64,000 nt of DNA from Nitrosarchaeum sp. (GTDB lineage Archaea; Thermoproteota; Nitrososphaeria; Nitrososphaerales; Nitrosopumilaceae). The notes under the pieces were generated by a model. That model saw nothing but the letters and a program-made list of their open reading frames with translations, did not search any database and had not been told where the DNA came from. This document shows, one piece after another, positions 2,755-12,915 of the stretch (position 1 is the first letter of the stretch; every line of letters begins with the position of its first letter). The translations under genes were made by a program, and so were the position numbers. Location of the stretch: NCBI GenBank assembly GCA_965223865.1, contig OZ245020.1:128001-192000 (forward strand). Direction: 5' to 3'.

Positions 2755-2790
2755 TTTTTTTAAAAAAATTATTACGTGTGGATGCTTTTC

Positions 2791-2810
2791 TTAACCTCAA
2801 ATATATCCCC
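2791..2810 (-). mobile_element. Putative right terminus of an upstream casposon-like element (reads GGGGATATATTTGAGGTTAA on minus strand)
   Basis: ATATATCCCC abuts the 14-bp TSD copy at 2811-2824; GGG(G)ATAT is the typical casposon TIR terminus; partner end not in window. Confidence 0.55.
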
Positions 2811-2824
2811 AAGCACATCCTGCT
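2811..2824 (+). repeat. Left target-site duplication AAGCACATCCTGCT (14 bp)
   Basis: Identical to 8379-8392; both copies directly flank the TIRs. Confidence 0.93.
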
Positions 2825-2896
2825 GGGGTACTATAACAGCGCTCCATTTAACGCCCCCTGGATAGTATACCAAAAAGGGTCCTGATCAGTAACCTT
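2825..2896 (+). repeat. Left terminal inverted repeat (72 bp)
   Basis: GGGGTACTATAACAGCGCTCCATTTAACGCCCCCTG...CCTGATCAGTAACCTT; reverse complement of 8307-8378, first 36 bp perfect, 3 mismatches overall. Confidence 0.95.
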
Positions 2897-2972
2897 GAAA
2901 CTTGTTATGAAACCAAACGACTACACACAACAAAAAATAACTATTCCGAGGATAAAGCCAATTCATTCGTGA

Positions 2973-3644
2973 ATGAATATGGAAACTGACCCTGATGATT
3001 TACAGAAAATGAGCGAATTGGCCAATTGGTTTGAACAGCGCAAAAATGAAATTCCAAACATAGACAGATTAATTCACAAACTTAGAAACGACCAACAATT
3101 AGGGCACCTTGTCAATGCACAATTTGTAAAACAATTTCATGAAGATGGAACTTTCAGAGTTACTGATGTTGAAGCCAGCACTGGCGATAACGATGTAGAT
3201 ATCGAGTTAGACCATAAAATCAATATTCAAACTTGGCACGGACAAAGCACAGCAGGACACATTATGGAGTCTCAATTTGACAGGAAGGGAATGCAACGAA
3301 ATGTACGGTTAGGGAACATTTCCCCGTTGGGGGGAATCAATAGTGATTTTGATAAAGACTGTCAAGTCATGAAAAAGAAACTAAGTCAATTACCTGATGA
3401 CAATTTCGGCATGGTTTTACTGTTAGACAGATTTGTTGGAATGACAATTTTTCCAGATTGGTGGGACGAGATTTCAGATAACAAATGTGTGGTTAAACTG
3501 AGTTACGTCAGTCACGATACGGGATTCGATAACGTATACGGAGAATCTGTAGTATATCATTCAGATAATTTCCAACAAATGAATAAAGCAAAAGAAATTA
3601 TCAAAGCATTAAAGTTTAATTTCAAAGCAGAAAATATTCCGTGA
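2973..3644 (+). CDS. Hypothetical protein, possible PD-(D/E)xK-like fold
   Basis: 223-aa ORF; DNDVDIELDHKINIQTW loosely resembles a restriction-endonuclease-like active site. Confidence 0.55.
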   Translation: MNMETDPDDLQKMSELANWFEQRKNEIPNIDRLIHKLRNDQQLGHLVNAQFVKQFHEDGTFRVTDVEASTGDNDVDIELDHKINIQTWHGQSTAGHIMESQFDRKGMQRNVRLGNISPLGGINSDFDKDCQVMKKKLSQLPDDNFGMVLLLDRFVGMTIFPDWWDEISDNKCVVKLSYVSHDTGFDNVYGESVVYHSDNFQQMNKAKEIIKALKFNFKAENIP

Positions 3645-3656
3645 ACTGAAATACAA

Positions 3657-4355
3657 TTACTTTGTAATGTGCCCTTTCAGTCTGTCGACGATTCTATGTA
3701 CTTCCTTTTCTGAAAACTGTTCCTTTCTGCCTTCAATAAATGAATTAATTCTATTCAAATCCGTAACTGAAACAAACCTGTAATTGGAATTGTATTTCAT
3801 ATTTCCACGGACAGATAACAAGACACTTGTGACGGGAGGGTTTTTCGGACTACGCCAGGATTTTAATGCAATCCATAACACTCTTCCAGCTCTGTCTACC
3901 TGTTCATGCGGACTGAGGTTCTCGTTTTGATTATAGTATTGGGTGCTCCAGTTTTTGACTTCGATTAGAACTATTCCTCTATTAGACACTACGACAAAGT
4001 CCATTTGTGCAGATTTTAGATTCTTTCTTCCATTGTAAGTTACGTAGTTTGGCAATTCAAAATTTAATCCACACATGACATGAAAATTATCAGACAGTTC
4101 AGATAGTTTTCCCAAGACACTTAATTCCCCATTTGCACCAGCATGGAACGGGTCGTCCTTGTTTTTCTCAAACCTGTTAACCTGTCTTTGTTTGTTCCAT
4201 TTTTTGATGCCTCCAAAAAATCCCTTGTGTTCTGCCTTTAGTTCTTCTTTTAATTCCTGATGAACTCTGTCAATGTCTTCTATTTTCTTTACTTTTCTCG
4301 GATACAAGTCAAGAAGTTCTTTTTCACTTTCAGCACGACCGTAAATTATGGCCAA
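3657..4355 (-). CDS. NERD (nuclease-related domain) protein
   Basis: GANGE...QMDFVVVSNRGIVLIEVKNW...SPHEQV motifs typical of NERD. Confidence 0.88.
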   Translation of the reverse strand: MAIIYGRAESEKELLDLYPRKVKKIEDIDRVHQELKEELKAEHKGFFGGIKKWNKQRQVNRFEKNKDDPFHAGANGELSVLGKLSELSDNFHVMCGLNFELPNYVTYNGRKNLKSAQMDFVVVSNRGIVLIEVKNWSTQYYNQNENLSPHEQVDRAGRVLWIALKSWRSPKNPPVTSVLLSVRGNMKYNSNYRFVSVTDLNRINSFIEGRKEQFSEKEVHRIVDRLKGHITK

Positions 4356-4453
4356 TATAGTGACGTTTGTATATTATTGAAAAAACGTTTTGTTTTACAA
4401 AAACCCTGTTTTTTAAAAAAGCATTTAACTCAACAATCCAAACCTCATACATC

Positions 4454-5250
4454 ATGCAAATGAAGAGATTTCGAGTCCAGAATTACAAGAAGGTTGAAGA
4501 TACGGATTGGGTAAAATGTGATAATCTAACTGTGTTTGTAGGGAAAAATGAGTCAGGCAAATCGGCCATTTTTAGAGGTCTTTCAAAACTTAACCCCTCA
4601 GATGGTGAAATCTATGATGCACTTAAGGAATTTCCAAGAAGGAGATACTCTGAATATAAAAATAGAATTTGGCCTGTGAGTAGTGCTGAATTTGAGTTAG
4701 AAAAAAATGAAATTGAAAAACTTTGCGAAATTTGTGACCCACTTAGAAAAATAAAAAGCGTTATTGTAACTAGATTTTATGACGATAGTCTGAAGGCTGA
4801 ATTTGAACCAAAACCAGATATTGATTCGTTATTAGTAAAAGATTACTTAAACTCAATAAAATCATGGAAAAAACAAATTGAAAAAACTGTAGCCCCTGAA
4901 GGAAAAGGGGAAATTTTAGGGCAAATTAAAAATAATTTTAATCAAGTATTTGATAGTACAATTGCCAAATTAACAGATGAAGATGAACTGTCTTCCGTTG
5001 ATTCTACAATAGTTAAAGAAGTAACAGATACACTCAATTCTAACATCAATGAAGAATGGCAACAAAAAATATTTGATTCAGTTATTGAAGAAAATGACAA
5101 ACTTTCAACAAGAATTGAAAAACGAGATGATTTAGAAAATGCAAAAAATTGGATTTATGAAAATATACCTCAATTCATTTATTTTGATAAATATGATGTT
5201 TTAGATAGTGCAGTTCACATAGACCGATTTATCCAAGACTTGAACAAAGA
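4454..5250 (+). pseudogene. N-terminal fragment of OLD/GajA-like ABC (AAA_15) ATPase
   Basis: MQMKRFRVQNYK start, Walker A VGKNESGKS; no signature, Walker B or TOPRIM parts; runs out of frame into unrelated sequence near 5250. Confidence 0.8.
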
Positions 5251-5525
5251 CACTATCCAAGAAAATAAATCTCAAACCTGCTGGAATTACAGTAAAATCC
5301 TTGAAGGGGAGGTGGGGCAGCGCAACATCCAAAGGAATCATTACTCTGAATTCTAATTTAATTAAGACGCCAAAGAAGGTAATTGATTACATCATAATTC
5401 ACGAATTGTGTCACTTGAATGTAAAGGAACATTCCAGAACATTTTGGAATCTTGTTTCAAAGTATGACAAGGACTATACTAAAAAGGAAAAGTGGTTGTC
5501 AGACAACCATGTAAAAATATCCTGA
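5244..5525 (+). pseudogene. C-terminal fragment of YgjP/DUF45 (SprT-like) metalloprotease
   Basis: LSKKINLKPAGITVKSLKGRWGS...IDYIIIHELCHLNVKEHSRTFW; N-terminal part missing. Confidence 0.85.
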
Positions 5526-5537
5526 GTGCTTTCTAGG

Positions 5538-6029
5538 TTAATCATCTCCTGTCAAGACATGAAGTGCAATTAATCCAATCAATAAAAGTACCAATCCAAA
5601 CTGTCCATGCAACAACCTGTTGAAGACTTTTGTGTGTCTTGAGGAAGTGTATTTCAACAGAATTCCGCTAATCATCAAGACTGTCATTGTAATTGCCAAT
5701 GACAGAGAAATGGAATCCAAGTCATTTACAAGAAGCAGTCCATGCGACATTCCTGCAAAATAGCCAATTGAATTAAGAATAATGTGAAAGTTCAGAACTG
5801 GTTTGTAAAATTGAACTGCCTGTCTTGCCATCACTAATGATTGACCGCCTGCGCGTACAGCGTATTTTCTCCACTTGTTAAATACGATAAAAGGTAGATT
5901 TGCGACAACTCCTGCACCAATAGCCACCCATCCCAGGCTCTCTACTGCGTCTTCAGCGTCATCGTCTGCAAATACGGGTATTGGTACTAAAAATAATAGA
6001 AAAATAATAGGGAAAATTTTGAGATTCAT
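5538..6029 (-). CDS. Membrane protein with paired intramembrane His (cytochrome b/ferric-reductase-like)
   Basis: Signal peptide plus ~4 TM; FHIILNSIGYFAGMSH and LHGQFG...ALH histidine pairs. Confidence 0.6.
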   Translation of the reverse strand: MNLKIFPIIFLLFLVPIPVFADDDAEDAVESLGWVAIGAGVVANLPFIVFNKWRKYAVRAGGQSLVMARQAVQFYKPVLNFHIILNSIGYFAGMSHGLLLVNDLDSISLSLAITMTVLMISGILLKYTSSRHTKVFNRLLHGQFGLVLLLIGLIALHVLTGDD

Positions 6030-6033
6030 CGGA

Positions 6034-6357
6034 TCAACTCGATTTCATCTGAGGTCTTTTGGCTTTGTAGATTTTGTATCCCGTATATGCAACAGAGCCT
6101 ACAATCACTGCAATGGTTCCATAAAGAATTGCATCTGGTATCCCTCCGCCTAGTGCAAGTCCCTCATCATCGTCATCTTCCTCATCATCTCCTCTTTCCC
6201 TTTCCTGTTCTCTTGCTTGTTCTCTTTCAGTCTCACCAAATCCTCTCTGTTCATCATCTTCATACTCATCATCGTCATCTTCATCAGCAAAGACTGTGGG
6301 AACTGTAACAACAGAAAGTGTTAGAATCAAAAATAGACCAAGTGTGAGTGCCTTCAT
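6034..6357 (-). CDS. Exported, highly acidic protein with C-terminal TM anchor
   Basis: Signal peptide ending VFA, Asp/Glu tracts, C-terminal hydrophobic helix and basic tail. Confidence 0.8.
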   Translation of the reverse strand: MKALTLGLFLILTLSVVTVPTVFADEDDDDEYEDDEQRGFGETEREQAREQERERGDDEEDDDDEGLALGGGIPDAILYGTIAVIVGSVAYTGYKIYKAKRPQMKSS

Positions 6358-6770
6358 TGCTTTCTCACCCTTGTGCTTTCATGTTGCAACCATGGCTCTT
6401 TTCTGATTTGAGCCCATGCCAGTACGGAACCAATTACTACTCCTACTTGAAGTACTTTTGATACGATTCCCAAATGTCCTATTCCTCCAGCACTCATTCC
6501 GAAAACTGCAGCCATGTCAGTTCTTGTAACTGCATACAATGCAATTATTCCAACAGTTCCAGCTATTGTTACAGCATATGGAAGTGAACTGTTTGAACTC
6601 TTTAGCATCCAGACTGCAACTGGAATGTAGGCAACTGCCACAACCAAGAAGAATGGACCTTTTATCATGTCTTGTTCTTCAAACAACTCTTCTGATGTCT
6701 CTACAAAATAAACAGTAGAAGTTGCTATCATAAGACCAACAACAATTCCAATTATTGATTTTTTGTTCAT
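6354..6770 (-). CDS. Hypothetical membrane protein (4 TM)
   Basis: Hydrophobic ORF overlapping the downstream gene by 4 nt. Confidence 0.8.
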   Translation of the reverse strand: MNKKSIIGIVVGLMIATSTVYFVETSEELFEEQDMIKGPFFLVVAVAYIPVAVWMLKSSNSSLPYAVTIAGTVGIIALYAVTRTDMAAVFGMSAGGIGHLGIVSKVLQVGVVIGSVLAWAQIRKEPWLQHESTRVRKQ

Positions 6771-6810
6771 GATACTATTACGTGAAAGTGAATATAATGC
6801 GTATTCATCA

Positions 6811-6827
6811 TTCCCAAATTTTGGGAA
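6811..6827. promoter_or_regulatory. Palindromic operator TTCCCA-N5-TGGGAA
   Basis: Perfect 8-1-8 inverted repeat upstream of the 6770 operon; same consensus as 7494-7510. Confidence 0.55.
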
Positions 6828-6834
6828 CGGTTTG

Positions 6835-7173
6835 TTATTCTGAAAACTTTTGCCAAAGCCTTACAATCTTGTCTTCCATCTTTACATGTTCAAGTTTGTA
6901 TGACAGTTCTCCATCTCTAAAAGTTACAATAATTTCATAGGTCCAGTTTTTGTAATAGCTTTCATCAAGGCCTTCCAAAGTTCTTACTACTTTGGTCTTC
7001 TTTACAATGTGTAGTTCTTCCAGCTTTCGTGTCTTGCGGTATGCAGTTGACTGTGGAATGTTTAGCAGATTGGAGATTTGCTGTATGGTGAGTTCTGTTT
7101 TTGACAATAGTGTTATTATCTTTCTGCTCTGTTTGTCAGACAACACATCAAGAATTTCGTCTGTTTCATCCAT
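6835..7173 (-). CDS. ArsR-like winged HTH transcriptional regulator
   Basis: LDVLSDKQSRKII...LTIQQISNLLNIPQSTAYRK wHTH. Confidence 0.88.
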   Translation of the reverse strand: MDETDEILDVLSDKQSRKIITLLSKTELTIQQISNLLNIPQSTAYRKTRKLEELHIVKKTKVVRTLEGLDESYYKNWTYEIIVTFRDGELSYKLEHVKMEDKIVRLWQKFSE

Positions 7174-7174
7174 T

Positions 7175-7441
7175 TCAGCTTCGTTTTACAGCCAATATCA
7201 GAACAATAAAACCTGCAATCTCGATTCCTTCTTCTAATATTTCTCCTAGTATATGGTCTTCAAACACAGAAACAACATCCCCCATTATGGTATCGCCTAT
7301 TACTATTAATGAAAAACCAACCGCTAGAAGGGCCATTGGAGGATATTTTGTCTTCTTGAATGCCTTCATAGCAAGGTAAACCAAGGCAAAACCAACTATG
7401 ATGTGAATAACTAGTATGGCGTAATGAATTTCCTGAACCAA
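7175..7441 (-). CDS. Small 3-TM membrane protein co-transcribed with wHTH regulator
   Basis: 88 aa hydrophobic; stop lies 1 nt from the regulator start. Confidence 0.8.
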   Translation of the reverse strand: MVQEIHYAILVIHIIVGFALVYLAMKAFKKTKYPPMALLAVGFSLIVIGDTIMGDVVSVFEDHILGEILEEGIEIAGFIVLILAVKRS

Positions 7442-7493
7442 TATTTCTCCTCCATTCTAATTGTGATTCTGGATTTAAAGGACATATCTACCA

Positions 7494-7510
7494 TTCTCAT
7501 GAATTGAGAA
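7494..7510. promoter_or_regulatory. Palindromic operator TTCTCA-N5-TGAGAA
   Basis: Inverted repeat in the divergent promoter region 7441/7628. Confidence 0.55.
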
Positions 7511-7627
7511 TCATTTTTGGAGATTCTAAATTTTGATTAGCTGTTACAAAAATTTGAAATCAAGTTTGATTTTCATTAGTGAAAATTATATAATCTGTAT
7601 ATACTTTGCAAGGCTATTTTCTGTAAC

Positions 7628-8293
7628 ATGGTAAGTCAGTATGTCTGGATTGGCATTGCTGTTGGAGTTTTTGTAGCAGGCATTGGAATTGGTTTTGCAG
7701 CATTACAGGGCTCATCTCCAGCACCAGTTATGATGTCTCCTCAACAAATGCCACAGATGATGTCTGACCCTGAATTTAGGCAACAAATGAGAGACAACAT
7801 GAGCCAAAATCGACAATTTATGCAAGAGGCAATGCAAGACCCAGAATACATGCAACAGATGCATTCAACGATGATGGAAAACAGACAACACATGCAAGGA
7901 ATGATGGGTCCTATGATGAATTCCATGATGGATGATCCTGAATTAAGAGAAGAGATGATGAATACAATGTCACAACATCAGGCAATGATGCAGTCTATGA
8001 TGCAGAATCCAGAAATGATGAATATGATGAATCAGAATATGATGGGGTCAGGTATGATGGGACAAGGCAAAGGAATGATGAGTGGAGGTATGGGCCAGAT
8101 GATGATACAGGACCCTGAGTTGCTAGAGCAATTCAAACAACAAAAACTAGAACATCAAAAAATAATGAATGAGTTAATGTCTGGAGATATGAATGACCCA
8201 GCAGTACAACAGAAGCTCAAAGACCAGATTGAAGAACATCAAAAATTCATGGACGAGTTAATGAATCAGCTTAATTCTCAAACTGGTCCATAA
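7628..8293 (+). CDS. Membrane-anchored Met/Gln-rich protein with STI1-like DPE/NPE repeats
   Basis: N-terminal TM; about 46 Met in 221 aa; recurring (D/N)PE motifs. Confidence 0.85.
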   Translation: MVSQYVWIGIAVGVFVAGIGIGFAALQGSSPAPVMMSPQQMPQMMSDPEFRQQMRDNMSQNRQFMQEAMQDPEYMQQMHSTMMENRQHMQGMMGPMMNSMMDDPELREEMMNTMSQHQAMMQSMMQNPEMMNMMNQNMMGSGMMGQGKGMMSGGMGQMMIQDPELLEQFKQQKLEHQKIMNELMSGDMNDPAVQQKLKDQIEEHQKFMDELMNQLNSQTGP

Positions 8294-8306
8294 ATTCTAT
8301 TTTTCA

Positions 8307-8378
8307 AAGGTTACTGATCAGGACACTTTTTGGTATACCATTCAGGGGGCGTTAAATGGAGCGCTGTTATAGTACCCC
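8307..8378 (-). repeat. Right terminal inverted repeat (72 bp)
   Basis: Reverse complement of 2825-2896. Confidence 0.95.
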
Positions 8379-8392
8379 AAGCACATCCTGCT
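8379..8392 (+). repeat. Right target-site duplication AAGCACATCCTGCT
   Basis: Identical to 2811-2824. Confidence 0.93.
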
Positions 8393-8429
8393 GCCATTAC
8401 GATTTGAACCACTTTTCAGAGTGCAAAAT

Positions 8430-8451
8430 AAATCGGCCTAACTATATCCCC
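8430..8451 (-). mobile_element. Putative further casposon-like terminus (GGGGATATAGTTAGGCCG on minus strand)
   Basis: TATATCCCC at 8443-8451, same 9-mer as 2802-2810. Confidence 0.45.
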
Positions 8452-8668
8452 AGACAGGTTGTACTTCCAACTAATTTTGAACCGATTGTAAATACTTCTC
8501 TGAGATTAGTGATTGTATTTTTTTGTCTAACTACCAGCAAGGCTGAATTTGAGCTTCGTAGTTTATCTTCATTTTAATGAATATTCATCCAAATTTCATC
8601 TATAAAATAAACAAGTTTAAAGAAAAATTATTTCAGATTTAACTTCTAGTTTGACTATTACTCATTGT

Positions 8669-8800
8669 TTGAAAGAAGACTATGCAGAGTATACAAAGTG
8701 TGAAAGCTGTGATGCACCGCTACTTCTATGTGACTGTAATTGCCCAAAGTGTGGTAAAAGACAAGAGTGTAGATGCGAGCTAATGCCAATTGCCAATTAG
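8669..8800 (+). CDS. Cys-rich microprotein (43 aa, 8 Cys)
   Basis: MKEDYAEYTKCESCDAPLLLCDCNCPKCGKRQECRCELMPIAN, TTG start; translated by hand. Confidence 0.6.
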   Translation: MKEDYAEYTKCESCDAPLLLCDCNCPKCGKRQECRCELMPIAN

Positions 8801-11046: not shown

Positions 11047-12915
11047 TTGGAAAAATATGATGTTGCAATAATTGGTGGAGGCACTGCAGGACTAGCTGCT
11101 CTAAAACAGTTATCAAATCTTGGCAAGCAAGCAATTCTACTGGAGGCAGGATCAGAGGTTGGCTCAAAGAATCTCTCAGGTGGAATTCTTTACTCAAAGA
11201 AACCAAAGAAGGGAACTGTAAATAATGTAGAGCAGGTCTATGAGAATTTTTTAGATGATGCTCCTTTTGAGAGAAAGATAACAAAGTATGTTTTGCACTC
11301 AACATCAAAAGACAAGATCTACTCGATGGATCTTACTGCAGCACACGAGTATCAAGCAAATTTTGGATATTCTGTTTTGTTGAACAAACTAAATTCATGG
11401 TTTGCAAGACAAGCAAATGATGCAGCTGAAAAACTAGGTGGCGGAATAATTCCAGGTGTGCATGTACGCTCAATTACCTGGAATGATAGTGGTAGTGCTG
11501 TAATTCAGACTGATGAGTTAGATGAATTTGAAGTCAAAGCAGTAATTGCAGCTGATGGAGTAAACTCTGAAATTGCTGAAATGGTAGGTGCAAGACCAAA
11601 GTTCACACCAACACAGTTGTATCAAGGAGTAAAAGTAATTGTAAAACTTCCTGAAGAGATTATTGAGAAGAGATTTGGAATCTCATCAAATGAAGGTGCA
11701 GCCCATCTATTTGCAGGAGATGTTACACTAAACCATATTGGAGGGGGATTTCTGTATACAAATTCAAATACACTTTCAGTTGGTGCAGTATACCACTTTG
11801 ACTCTCAGTTGTCAAATCCAACTGAACCATACACCCTCATTGATGCACTTTTGAAAAATCCAATGATAAGTGAATTTATCAAAGATGATGTACCAATCAA
11901 AGGAGAAATCGACAAGAATCTTCCACAAGAAGAACAGTTACGAATTCGCTTTGCAGTAGCAAAGCAAATCAAAAACTGGAATGAGATCCGTGAGGCACAT
12001 CTGTCATCAAGTGGAAGACAACGACTAATTGATTCAGGCAAATTCAAGACTGAAGAAGCAATTGCAACTAGACTATCTAAAATTGAAGAGATGCTAGACA
12101 AGTTGGGAGTAACTTTTGGTTCAGACTATGTAGAGGCAGAATATGGGGCAAAACTAGTTCCTGATGGAAAGAGATGCAGGATGACAAAGCCATTTTACAA
12201 AAATATCTTATTTGTCGGAGATGCAGCAGGCAGAGGAGTCTTTGTTGGTCCAAGAATTGAGGGACTAAATGTAGGAATAGATGATGGAGTAAGAGCAGCC
12301 AATGCAGTAGCAAGGGCAATTGACAAGAATGACTTTTCATCTGATTATCTAGGTGAATACTATTCTCAGCAGACAGAGGAGAGTCCATACACCACAGATA
12401 TGAAACAGATTGACAAGGATTACCTCAAGATTTTTCTTGATGCAGCAAAAGATGTACCAAAAGATATCATTGGATCACGCTATGGCCCAATTTTGAAAAT
12501 GATGTCAAGTGGAACCTTGCGAGGCATTGCTGTAAAGTTTGCAAATATTTTAGGATACGAAAAACTTCTTCCAATGGTAGAATCAGAGGACACCTACGTA
12601 AAGGTGCCAATTGAGCTTGCCGAACGCCTAGGTGAGACAGTATCTACAACCTATTCTCCAAGTATTCCCTCAATTGCAGACAGAATTGCAAATCTAAGTT
12701 ACAATGATGATAACTCATCTCACATCAAGGTTCTAAAGCCTACTAGTGAATATATGAAAAAGATGGTAACTCTTTGTCCTGCAAAGTGTTACACAGAAGA
12801 AGGTGGAAATGTCATAATACAACACGAGGGATGTGTAGATTGTGGAACATGTTCACAAGAAACAGAGTGGAGACATCCCCGTGGTGAAAAAGGAATTCAT
12901 TACAAGTACGGCTAG
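11047..12915 (+). CDS. fixC: FixC (ETF:quinone oxidoreductase-type flavoprotein) fused to FixX ferredoxin
   Basis: YDVAIIGGGTAG Rossmann, GSKNLSGG, VGDAAG; C-terminal CPAKCY...CVDCGTC...WRHPRGEKGIHYKYG; TTG start at 11047 likely. Confidence 0.92.
   Translation: MEKYDVAIIGGGTAGLAALKQLSNLGKQAILLEAGSEVGSKNLSGGILYSKKPKKGTVNNVEQVYENFLDDAPFERKITKYVLHSTSKDKIYSMDLTAAHEYQANFGYSVLLNKLNSWFARQANDAAEKLGGGIIPGVHVRSITWNDSGSAVIQTDELDEFEVKAVIAADGVNSEIAEMVGARPKFTPTQLYQGVKVIVKLPEEIIEKRFGISSNEGAAHLFAGDVTLNHIGGGFLYTNSNTLSVGAVYHFDSQLSNPTEPYTLIDALLKNPMISEFIKDDVPIKGEIDKNLPQEEQLRIRFAVAKQIKNWNEIREAHLSSSGRQRLIDSGKFKTEEAIATRLSKIEEMLDKLGVTFGSDYVEAEYGAKLVPDGKRCRMTKPFYKNILFVGDAAGRGVFVGPRIEGLNVGIDDGVRAANAVARAIDKNDFSSDYLGEYYSQQTEESPYTTDMKQIDKDYLKIFLDAAKDVPKDIIGSRYGPILKMMSSGTLRGIAVKFANILGYEKLLPMVESEDTYVKVPIELAERLGETVSTTYSPSIPSIADRIANLSYNDDNSSHIKVLKPTSEYMKKMVTLCPAKCYTEEGGNVIIQHEGCVDCGTCSQETEWRHPRGEKGIHYKYG

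Follow-up and report, generated by a model that had tools for sequence, protein, structure and literature searches.

Casposons are described as self-synthesizing elements encoding a Cas1 integrase and a polymerase of their own. Their definition includes a Cas1-family casposase, a family B DNA polymerase (PolB), terminal inverted repeats (TIRs) and a duplication of about 14–15 bp (Krupovic et al. 2014, PMC4046053). In family 2 the duplications are about 14 bp (PMC8464041), and the target of the Aciduliprofundum boonei casposase has been mapped to TCAAATC, 8 bp upstream of the target-site duplication (TSD) (Beguin et al., PMC6614799). Solo-TIRs and tandem casposon arrays have been reported for Methanosarcina mazei (PMC4779613) and for NitNF5-C1/C2 (PMC6563490). 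Artificial mini-casposons, in which a marker is placed between 20-bp ends, integrate in vitro with target duplication and with inserts of up to about 4 kb (PMC8464041), and ends plus a target are therefore sufficient in that setting. We describe here a 5554-bp element (positions 2825–8378) within a 64,000-nucleotide stretch of a Nitrosarchaeum sp. chromosome (contig OZ245020.1, positions 128,001 to 192,000; hereafter the window). The element has casposon-type ends and a casposon-type target motif, and encloses cargo genes only. The data support its identification as a non-autonomous derivative of a family-2-type casposon that lacks both Cas1 and PolB.

Ends, duplication and target of the element

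The borders of the element and the features of its target site are as follows.

2768–2810, minus strand: solo casposon-type end, starting GGGGATATATTTGAGG..., directly abutting the distal copy of the duplication
2811–2824: TSD, distal copy, AAGCACATCCTGCT (sequence reading and repeat search)
2825–2896, plus strand: left TIR, first bases GGGGTACTATAAC (repeat search and alignment with casposon ends)
8307–8378, minus strand: right TIR, on the leader-proximal side (repeat search and alignment)
8379–8392: TSD, leader-proximal copy (sequence reading and repeat search)
8393–8407, minus strand: target leader, composed of TCAAATC (8407–8401) and 8 nt (8400–8393), followed by the duplication
8393–8483, minus strand: older unit hosting the insertion, with a second leader (8483–8466), a 14-mer (8465–8452) and a solo end (8451 to about 8393)

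A repeat search of the window returns the inverted arms as 2824–2896 and 8307–8379 (73 nt, 96% complementary). Sequence reading and alignment show that the first 36 nt of the arms are identical and that the three mismatches in 72 fall at arm positions 37, 40 and 54. In the host genome, the end sequence is present only as these two arms. The same search finds a 19-nt direct repeat at 2807–2825 and 8375–8393, within which a perfect 14-bp duplication abuts both ends; because the 19-nt repeat overlaps the G/C runs of the neighboring ends, the duplication could be anywhere from 14 to about 16 bp long. The first-pass annotation had described 72-bp TIRs flanked by a 14-bp TSD, and repeat search, sequence reading and alignment all bear this out. 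Its further suggestion that the insertion is recent holds only in a relative sense: the duplication is perfect, but alignment with five metagenomic copies of the end (see below) shows each of the three arm mismatches to be private to one arm.

The right flank, in minus-strand orientation, consists of GGTTCAAATC, then 8 nt, the duplication and the element end. The TCAAATC motif has a frequency of 2.3e-4 per position per strand in the host genome, and the chance of finding it at that exact offset in either flank is about 5e-4. The same TCAAATC-8-bp spacing is found at the tRNA targets of six Cas1-bearing loci from the same archaeal family (L075, L090, L084, L086, L100 and L101). We also note that the tRNA-Glu gene (C1:1856140–1856215, C1 being a contig of the host genome) has its T-arm and acceptor 3′ half duplicated 47 kb away, at C1:1903332. 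This partial copy may be the far border of an integrated element.

Both flanks of the element carry older solo ends. On the left, the solo end at 2768–2810 lies just past the stop codon of the antiporter gene (2752–2754), fits an end type of the form 'GGGGATATAG...CCACGTGG' that recurs at seven other loci in the host genome, and is probably what is left of an older element. Ends of this type also border a 20.5-kb element with Cas1 in G233, where the 14-mers on the two sides are identical. On the right, the TCAAATC leader that the element used is located within the solo end GGGGATATAGTTAGG... (from 8451 to about 8393). Alignment identifies the combination of leader, 14-mer and this type of solo end at seven loci in the host genome (window 8393–8483 and C1 positions 283100, 485008, 853199, 1080391, 1200681 and 1349068). 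The conserved unit is about 80 nt long and comprises a TCAAAT leader, a quasi-palindromic 14-mer and about 42 nt of casposon-type end sequence whose core is CCACGTGG, all in a genome that lacks Cas1. Head-to-head end/14-mer/end junctions are present at C1:203781, 850886, 1067043/1067058, 1337331/1337346 and 1977989/1978004. The pattern TCAAAT[C/T]-N8-AGCA occurs at 17 sites in the genome, and a GGGG tip follows exactly in five of them. The interval separating the element from the ETF-beta gene contains a small Cys-rich open reading frame (ORF; 49 aa, with CxxC pairs) at window 8651–8800.

The orthologous site in G030 (L060 2421–2510, corresponding to window 8439–8485) retains the leader, the 14-mer and the end tip next to the ETF operon. 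The DNA behind the end is different there, and includes, about 7 kb in, a copy (77%) of our element's three membrane-protein genes. The G030 antiporter gene is 1.4 Mb from the ETF operon and adjoins another such unit (L061 13396). The locus thus looks like an integration hot spot, and no empty site can therefore be read from it.

Casposons with related ends and the host genome

To obtain casposon ends from the same family, up to 20 kb was taken around each of 40 Cas1 genes and screened for widely spaced inverted repeats bordered by direct repeats. Three loci are family-1-like (L065, L071 and L082): their Cas1 proteins are about 337–362 aa long, their ends read TAAAAATAGAATCCCCCC... and their duplications contain ATAA. 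These features agree with those published for Ca. N. koreensis (PMC8464041), but the ends are unlike those of our element. A second class has a Cas1 of about 410 aa, and both element ends are visible, within 20 kb or less, in eight of its 24 loci (L075, L084, L086, L090, L092, L093, L100 and L101); a ninth element of this class, 20.5 kb long, spans L067 and L094. Seven of the eight have the tip GGGGTA[T/A]AGA, with CATTTGACC about 20 nt inward, the exception being L084, with the tip GGGAATATAG. In all of them, 14-bp direct repeats are found where a tRNA or tRNA-like sequence has its 3′ end, for example tRNA-Pro (tgg) in L075 and tRNA-Ser-like and tRNA-Glu-like ends in L101, L086, L084 and L100.

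The L075 element is a bona fide family-2-type casposon. Its Cas1 (409 aa) matches PF01867 with an E-value of 1.7e-56, and its best match among solved structures, over residues 2–396, is 6opm (E 8.2e-73), the family-2 casposase of M. mazei (PMC8464041). An ORF adjoining Cas1 matches the PolB family PF03175 (E 1.3e-11), and a winged helix-turn-helix (wHTH) gene also adjoins Cas1.

We aligned 14 ends from seven casposons of the ~410-aa class with the two arms of the element and the five metagenomic copies. Twelve columns are invariant (G1–G4, T5, A6, A9, T23–T25, A27 and C28), and a single 1-nt indel is required. The arms and the ends of the Cas1- and PolB-bearing elements have in common (i) the tip GGGGTA and (ii) a subterminal ..C.TTT.AC block. 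As judged by sequence, the alignment shows the ends of our element to be homologous to those of the family-2-type casposons found within this archaeal family. The first-pass annotation had proposed such a comparison with casposase- and PolB-bearing elements; the elements compared come from other genomes of the family. Its description of the element as casposon-like agrees with the end homology, the duplication of about 14 bp and the TCAAATC-8-bp flank. The kinship it assigned needs correction in one respect: the ends are of casposon type, but the relatives are of the family-2 type, with tRNA targets and a casposase of about 410 aa, and not of the family-1 type known from Nitrosopumilus.

The host genome (2.01 Mb in four contigs, 99.98% complete) contains no match to the Cas1 profile PF01867 in a search whose control matched in seven of 14 well-known control genomes. 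Nor does tblastn (E up to 1e-3) with the L075 casposon ORFs of at least 100 aa, casposase and PolB included, find any match in it. Cas1 matches are present in 139 of 400 other genomes sampled from the family and in all four same-genus genomes that were re-searched. In two of these four, G030 and G073, the ~410-aa casposase class is present only as fragments (237 and 194 aa, respectively). The Cas1 tally for the family, like the DUF7521 tally given below, takes in the unpublished genomes G205, G257, G259, G092, G077, G339 and G227, but none of the specific claims made here depends on these; L006, from G205, entered a blastp comparison only. Many genomes of the family also have Cas1 fusion ORFs of 550–670 aa. 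At L078 (G272:C1), arrays of 38–43-nt repeats in opposite orientations (2836–3093 and 11316–11874) flank a 316-aa Cas1, an arrangement that looks like an ordinary CRISPR locus.

Sister copies, other Cas1-less elements and cargo

The first-pass annotation had suggested looking for sister elements. Scanning metagenomes with an 18-mer from the end tip recovers five contigs (L110–L114) from three metagenomes, whereas the same 18-mer has no match in viral contigs. Each contig carries about 70 nt that are 90–100% like the arms, and the five have five different flanks and different 14-mers. The end in L112 lies on a leader-type site, those in L110, L113 and L114 abut a solo end plus 14-mer, and the flank of L111 is unrelated. 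Within a metagenome, the 14-mers cannot be paired as the two sides of one insertion, and the contigs therefore represent at least five junctions of several insertions. In L114, genes for ArsR and DUF7521 proteins (94% and 93% protein identity) lie immediately inside the end, the Met-rich gene is missing and, with respect to the leader, the arrangement is turned the other way round from that in the window. Four sequencing runs were also compared (X1, X3, X10 and X13). A contig from run X1 covers 8298–8379 and continues into another 14-mer and a solo end, and so is a further or identical junction; contigs from run X13, which probably represents the source organism, break at the repeats of the element. 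The runs thus speak neither for nor against mobility.

Other Cas1-less elements with casposon-type ends exist. One of them, in the host genome, spans 11.7 kb (C1:1337346–1349068; L105 1347–13069). Its matched ends are of the GGGGATATAG type, its 14-bp duplication is perfect and a leader lies to its right; directly next to it, at C1:1337331, is a canonical casposon end in the opposite direction. Its cargo is metabolic and regulatory and includes alpha/beta hydrolase, Fe-S/SCP2, HxlR, beta-lactamase-fold, FAD monooxygenase and TetR genes, as well as an exosortase-like match below the curated cut-off, and none of the 10 ORFs scanned, nine of which are inside the element, matches an integrase. A second, in G373 (L101 70–2112, contig C8), spans only 2043 bp and has a single gene, whose product is a 604-aa membrane protein that on visual inspection resembles a CBS-domain TrkH-type transporter. 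This element and a 13-kb casposon that has Cas1 and PolB form a tandem at a tRNA-Ser-like leader, and one 14-mer is common to the three junctions. The region C1:1067058–1080391 was also considered as one element and was dropped, its two 14-mers being inverted rather than direct.

The interval between the arms of our element is tiled by 10 ORFs, all of them cargo.

2973–3644, plus strand: 223-aa ORF of no recognizable family (no Pfam, NCBIfam or PADLOC match)
3657–4355, minus strand: NERD-domain nuclease-like protein, 232 aa (PF08378, E 1.1e-11)
4367–5356, plus strand: AAA_15 (OLD/AriA/GajA-like) ATPase, N-terminal part, truncated near 5251 (Pfam, PADLOC)
5301–5525, plus strand: YgjP-like metallopeptidase, C-terminal third, a gene remnant (PF01863, profile positions 139–206 of 207 only)
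5538–6770, minus strand: three small membrane proteins of 163, 107 and 138 aa (ORF calls; no firm Pfam family)
6835–7173, minus strand: ArsR/TrmB-type winged-helix regulator, 112 aa (PF01022, E 5.9e-7)
7175–7441, minus strand: DUF7521 membrane protein, 88 aa (PF24365, E 6.5e-11)
7628–8293, plus strand: Met/Gln-rich membrane-anchored protein, 221 aa (sub-threshold Pfam matches only)

No ORF matches Cas1, PolB, a DDE or other transposase or a tyrosine recombinase in Pfam (10 ORFs) or NCBIfam (nine of the 10), in agreement with the first-pass annotation, which had seen no cas1, polB or DDE transposase gene between the TIRs. A casposase with a C-terminal HTH, an HNH nuclease and the two HTH genes typical of family 2 are likewise absent among the 10 ORFs searched with Pfam. 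The 223-aa ORF reaches a best atlas score of 0.89, to unnamed clusters only, and is not found by tblastn in the five sister contigs. Homologues of the NERD protein (48–51% identity) occur in loci taken around Cas1 genes of G003, G041 and G114, the one in G114 being inside a tandem Cas1-less element. A NERD gene is known as cargo of the casposon NitNF5-C1, and NERD and OLD nucleases have both been described as casposon cargo (PMC6563490).

The Pfam match of the AAA_15 ATPase spans profile positions 1–224 of 374, and its best PADLOC match is AriA (E 1.4e-8). A contig from run X3 is about 99% alike to the ATPase gene up to 5251 and then diverges. The ATPase is therefore truncated at about 5251 and abuts the peptidase fragment, and this junction at about 5251–5300 is a scar of internal rearrangement. 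The G+C content along the element is mosaic, ranging from 0.28 to 0.42. The membrane-protein genes have paralogues in the host genome at C1:363394–364000 and C1:1568808–1569777, and a copy in G030; a leader-like unit whose end is degenerate immediately precedes the second of these paralogous stretches (C1:1568651–1569777). The winged-helix regulator falls under the cut-off for the NF033788 metalloregulator subfamily (E 5.8e-7). Among 28 DUF7521 neighborhoods (L150, from an unpublished genome, was left out), a casposon-type end lies within 1.5 kb in one (L125), and the DUF7521 gene is therefore mostly ordinary accessory DNA. Comparison of the element with six family-2-type casposon loci by tblastx and blastn gives only a weak P-loop match as a link between cargoes.

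Mobilization, alternatives and comparison with known systems

From the anatomy of the element, the homology of its ends, the geometry of its target, the absence of Cas1 and the sister copies, we infer a casposon origin for the element and its integration by a casposase, with a probability of roughly 0.8. In such an event, the casposase, a Cas1-family integrase, would join the two ends of the element to positions staggered 14 bp apart in a target that would mimic the 3′ end of a tRNA (a T-loop-like TCAAATC, 8 bp, then AGCA...), and gap repair would then yield the 14-bp duplication. The target would have lain among older solo casposon ends that form a short array, intergenic between the cation/H+ antiporter gene and the ETF operon. 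Since neither a casposase nor a polymerase is encoded in the element, it is unable to move or replicate on its own, and its movement would need a casposase from another element, of which the host genome today has none. The first-pass annotation had proposed mobilization in trans, but this step is a deduction, and the junction at 5251–5300 allows for a loss in place. We lean modestly toward the element having traveled in its Cas1-less form, rather than having lost Cas1 and PolB after landing, because L114 and other Cas1-less elements exist.

Several observations weigh against integration of a Cas1-less element by a casposase. The end differs from the casposon ends by the 1-nt indel and at most non-invariant positions, and no casposase was found with exactly this end type. 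A 100-nt end is absent from the 400 other family genomes. In genome contigs representing 185,579 species, with one genome per species, a 20-mer of the end tip has no match and an internal 18-mer has only seven, in unrelated bacteria, which were judged to be chance. The sister contigs are short (1.3–4.1 kb) and could be parts of autonomous elements. No contig in the four sequencing runs skips 2825–8392. Neither an empty site nor an excision product was seen. The flanks were searched in six other genomes of the genus, and synteny is broken on both sides in the nearest species, G030, which is about 84% identical in the flanks. There is no tRNA at the target according to ARAGORN, Rfam (E up to 10) and comparison with all 37 tRNAs of the genome, likeness to which is limited to a T-loop-like 10-mer, and the leader motif may be part of the repeated unit rather than an independent site. 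Finally, the truncated genes that abut at about 5251–5300 show that an internal deletion occurred, which could have removed Cas1 and PolB in place.

This last point leads to the most serious alternative, in which a complete Cas1- and PolB-bearing casposon inserted here and lost its core genes by internal deletion or replacement, was never mobilized in trans and is now immobile. The abutting AAA_15 ATPase and YgjP fragments, the G+C mosaic and the private substitutions in the arms would all fit such a history, and the casposase fragments in G030 and G073 indicate that decay of this kind happens in the genus. However, the ArsR–DUF7521 pair lies beside the same end in L114, at another site and in the opposite orientation, so this cargo was next to the end before the present insertion. 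The complete 2-kb and 11.7-kb elements, with perfect duplications, show that Cas1-less elements occur intact, and no Cas1 or PolB remnant is detected in the host genome. Taking these together, we consider decay in place unlikely, if still a serious competitor. It is much harder to accept that a different enzyme was responsible, such as an IS/DDE transposase, a member of an unrecognized family or the 223-aa ORF acting as a new integrase, with the likeness to casposon ends being convergent. The 223-aa ORF does lack a recognizable family and no casposase is tied to exactly this end type, but the ORF is missing from the five sister contigs, a transposase domain is absent from the element by Pfam and NCBIfam, and ends with the same invariant positions border Cas1- and PolB-bearing elements in seven genomes. 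The 14-bp duplication and the TCAAATC-8-bp geometry also agree with published casposase behavior (PMC8464041, PMC6614799). Least probable of all is a tyrosine-recombinase island with the direct repeat as attL and attR. The repeat can be read as 19 bp, and tRNA-like targets are typical of such islands (PMC6563490), yet no integrase is found in or beside the element, 73-nt TIRs are foreign to att recombination and the neighboring ends, through their G/C runs, account for the bases in excess of 14 bp.

A broader and more speculative extension of casposase-mediated integration is that the casposases of this family service a population of 2–12-kb Cas1-less cassettes with several end types. These would insert by a leader-like tRNA mimic that solo ends carry along, and repeated leader-proximal insertions would build leader/14-mer/insert arrays at hot spots. 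We regard this as a tentative and rather unlikely proposal. If it were true, nature would offer an intermediate stage linking transposons to CRISPR-like arrays, as well as a route by which accessory genes spread among ammonia-oxidizing archaea.

Non-autonomous DNA transposons, such as miniature inverted-repeat transposable elements (MITEs) and mobile insertion cassettes, have ends like those of their autonomous relatives, no transposase and several copies with the same ends. Our element falls outside the casposon definition, having no Cas1 and no PolB, yet it has the features of a non-autonomous derivative: its ends are homologous to those of casposons, it has no transposase, and more than one insertion has the same ends. 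It differs from MITEs and mobile insertion cassettes in that the enzyme class would be Cas1 rather than DDE, and it is larger, carries genes and is present in one copy in its genome. If casposases do move such cassettes, casposons would be vehicles of accessory and defense genes in ammonia-oxidizing archaea, and the local arrays of leader, 14-mer and short solo end would offer a test system for repeat-insert arrays built by a Cas1 integrase, a proposed first step toward CRISPR. In the literature searched, we found no natural non-autonomous casposon; subscription papers and supplements were outside that scope, and the supplementary end tables of PMC6563490 and PMC4779613 may hold similar ends.

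The closest described elements are the family 2 casposons AciBoo-C1 of Aciduliprofundum boonei and NitNCS1-C1 of Ca. Nitrosotalea okcheonensis, which resemble it in having TIRs, a duplication of about 14 bp and a TCAAATC motif 8 bp from the duplication (PMC6614799, PMC8464041, PMC6563490). In contrast to these, our element lacks a casposase, PolB, an HNH gene and both of the HTH genes typical of the family, consisting of cargo only, and its target is a tRNA-like motif within an older solo end rather than a tRNA gene. Solo-TIRs and tandem arrays likewise involve bare casposon ends at integration sites and tandems with a common duplication, and solo ends are found in the flanks of our element; here, however, the ends are a matched pair with 5.5 kb of unrelated genes between them, which makes the element neither one leftover end nor a whole casposon. 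The artificial mini-casposons are laboratory constructs made for a family-1 enzyme, whereas the present case is a natural element with family-2-type ends. If casposases do move such cassettes, these would be the natural counterpart to the sufficiency of ends plus target in vitro.

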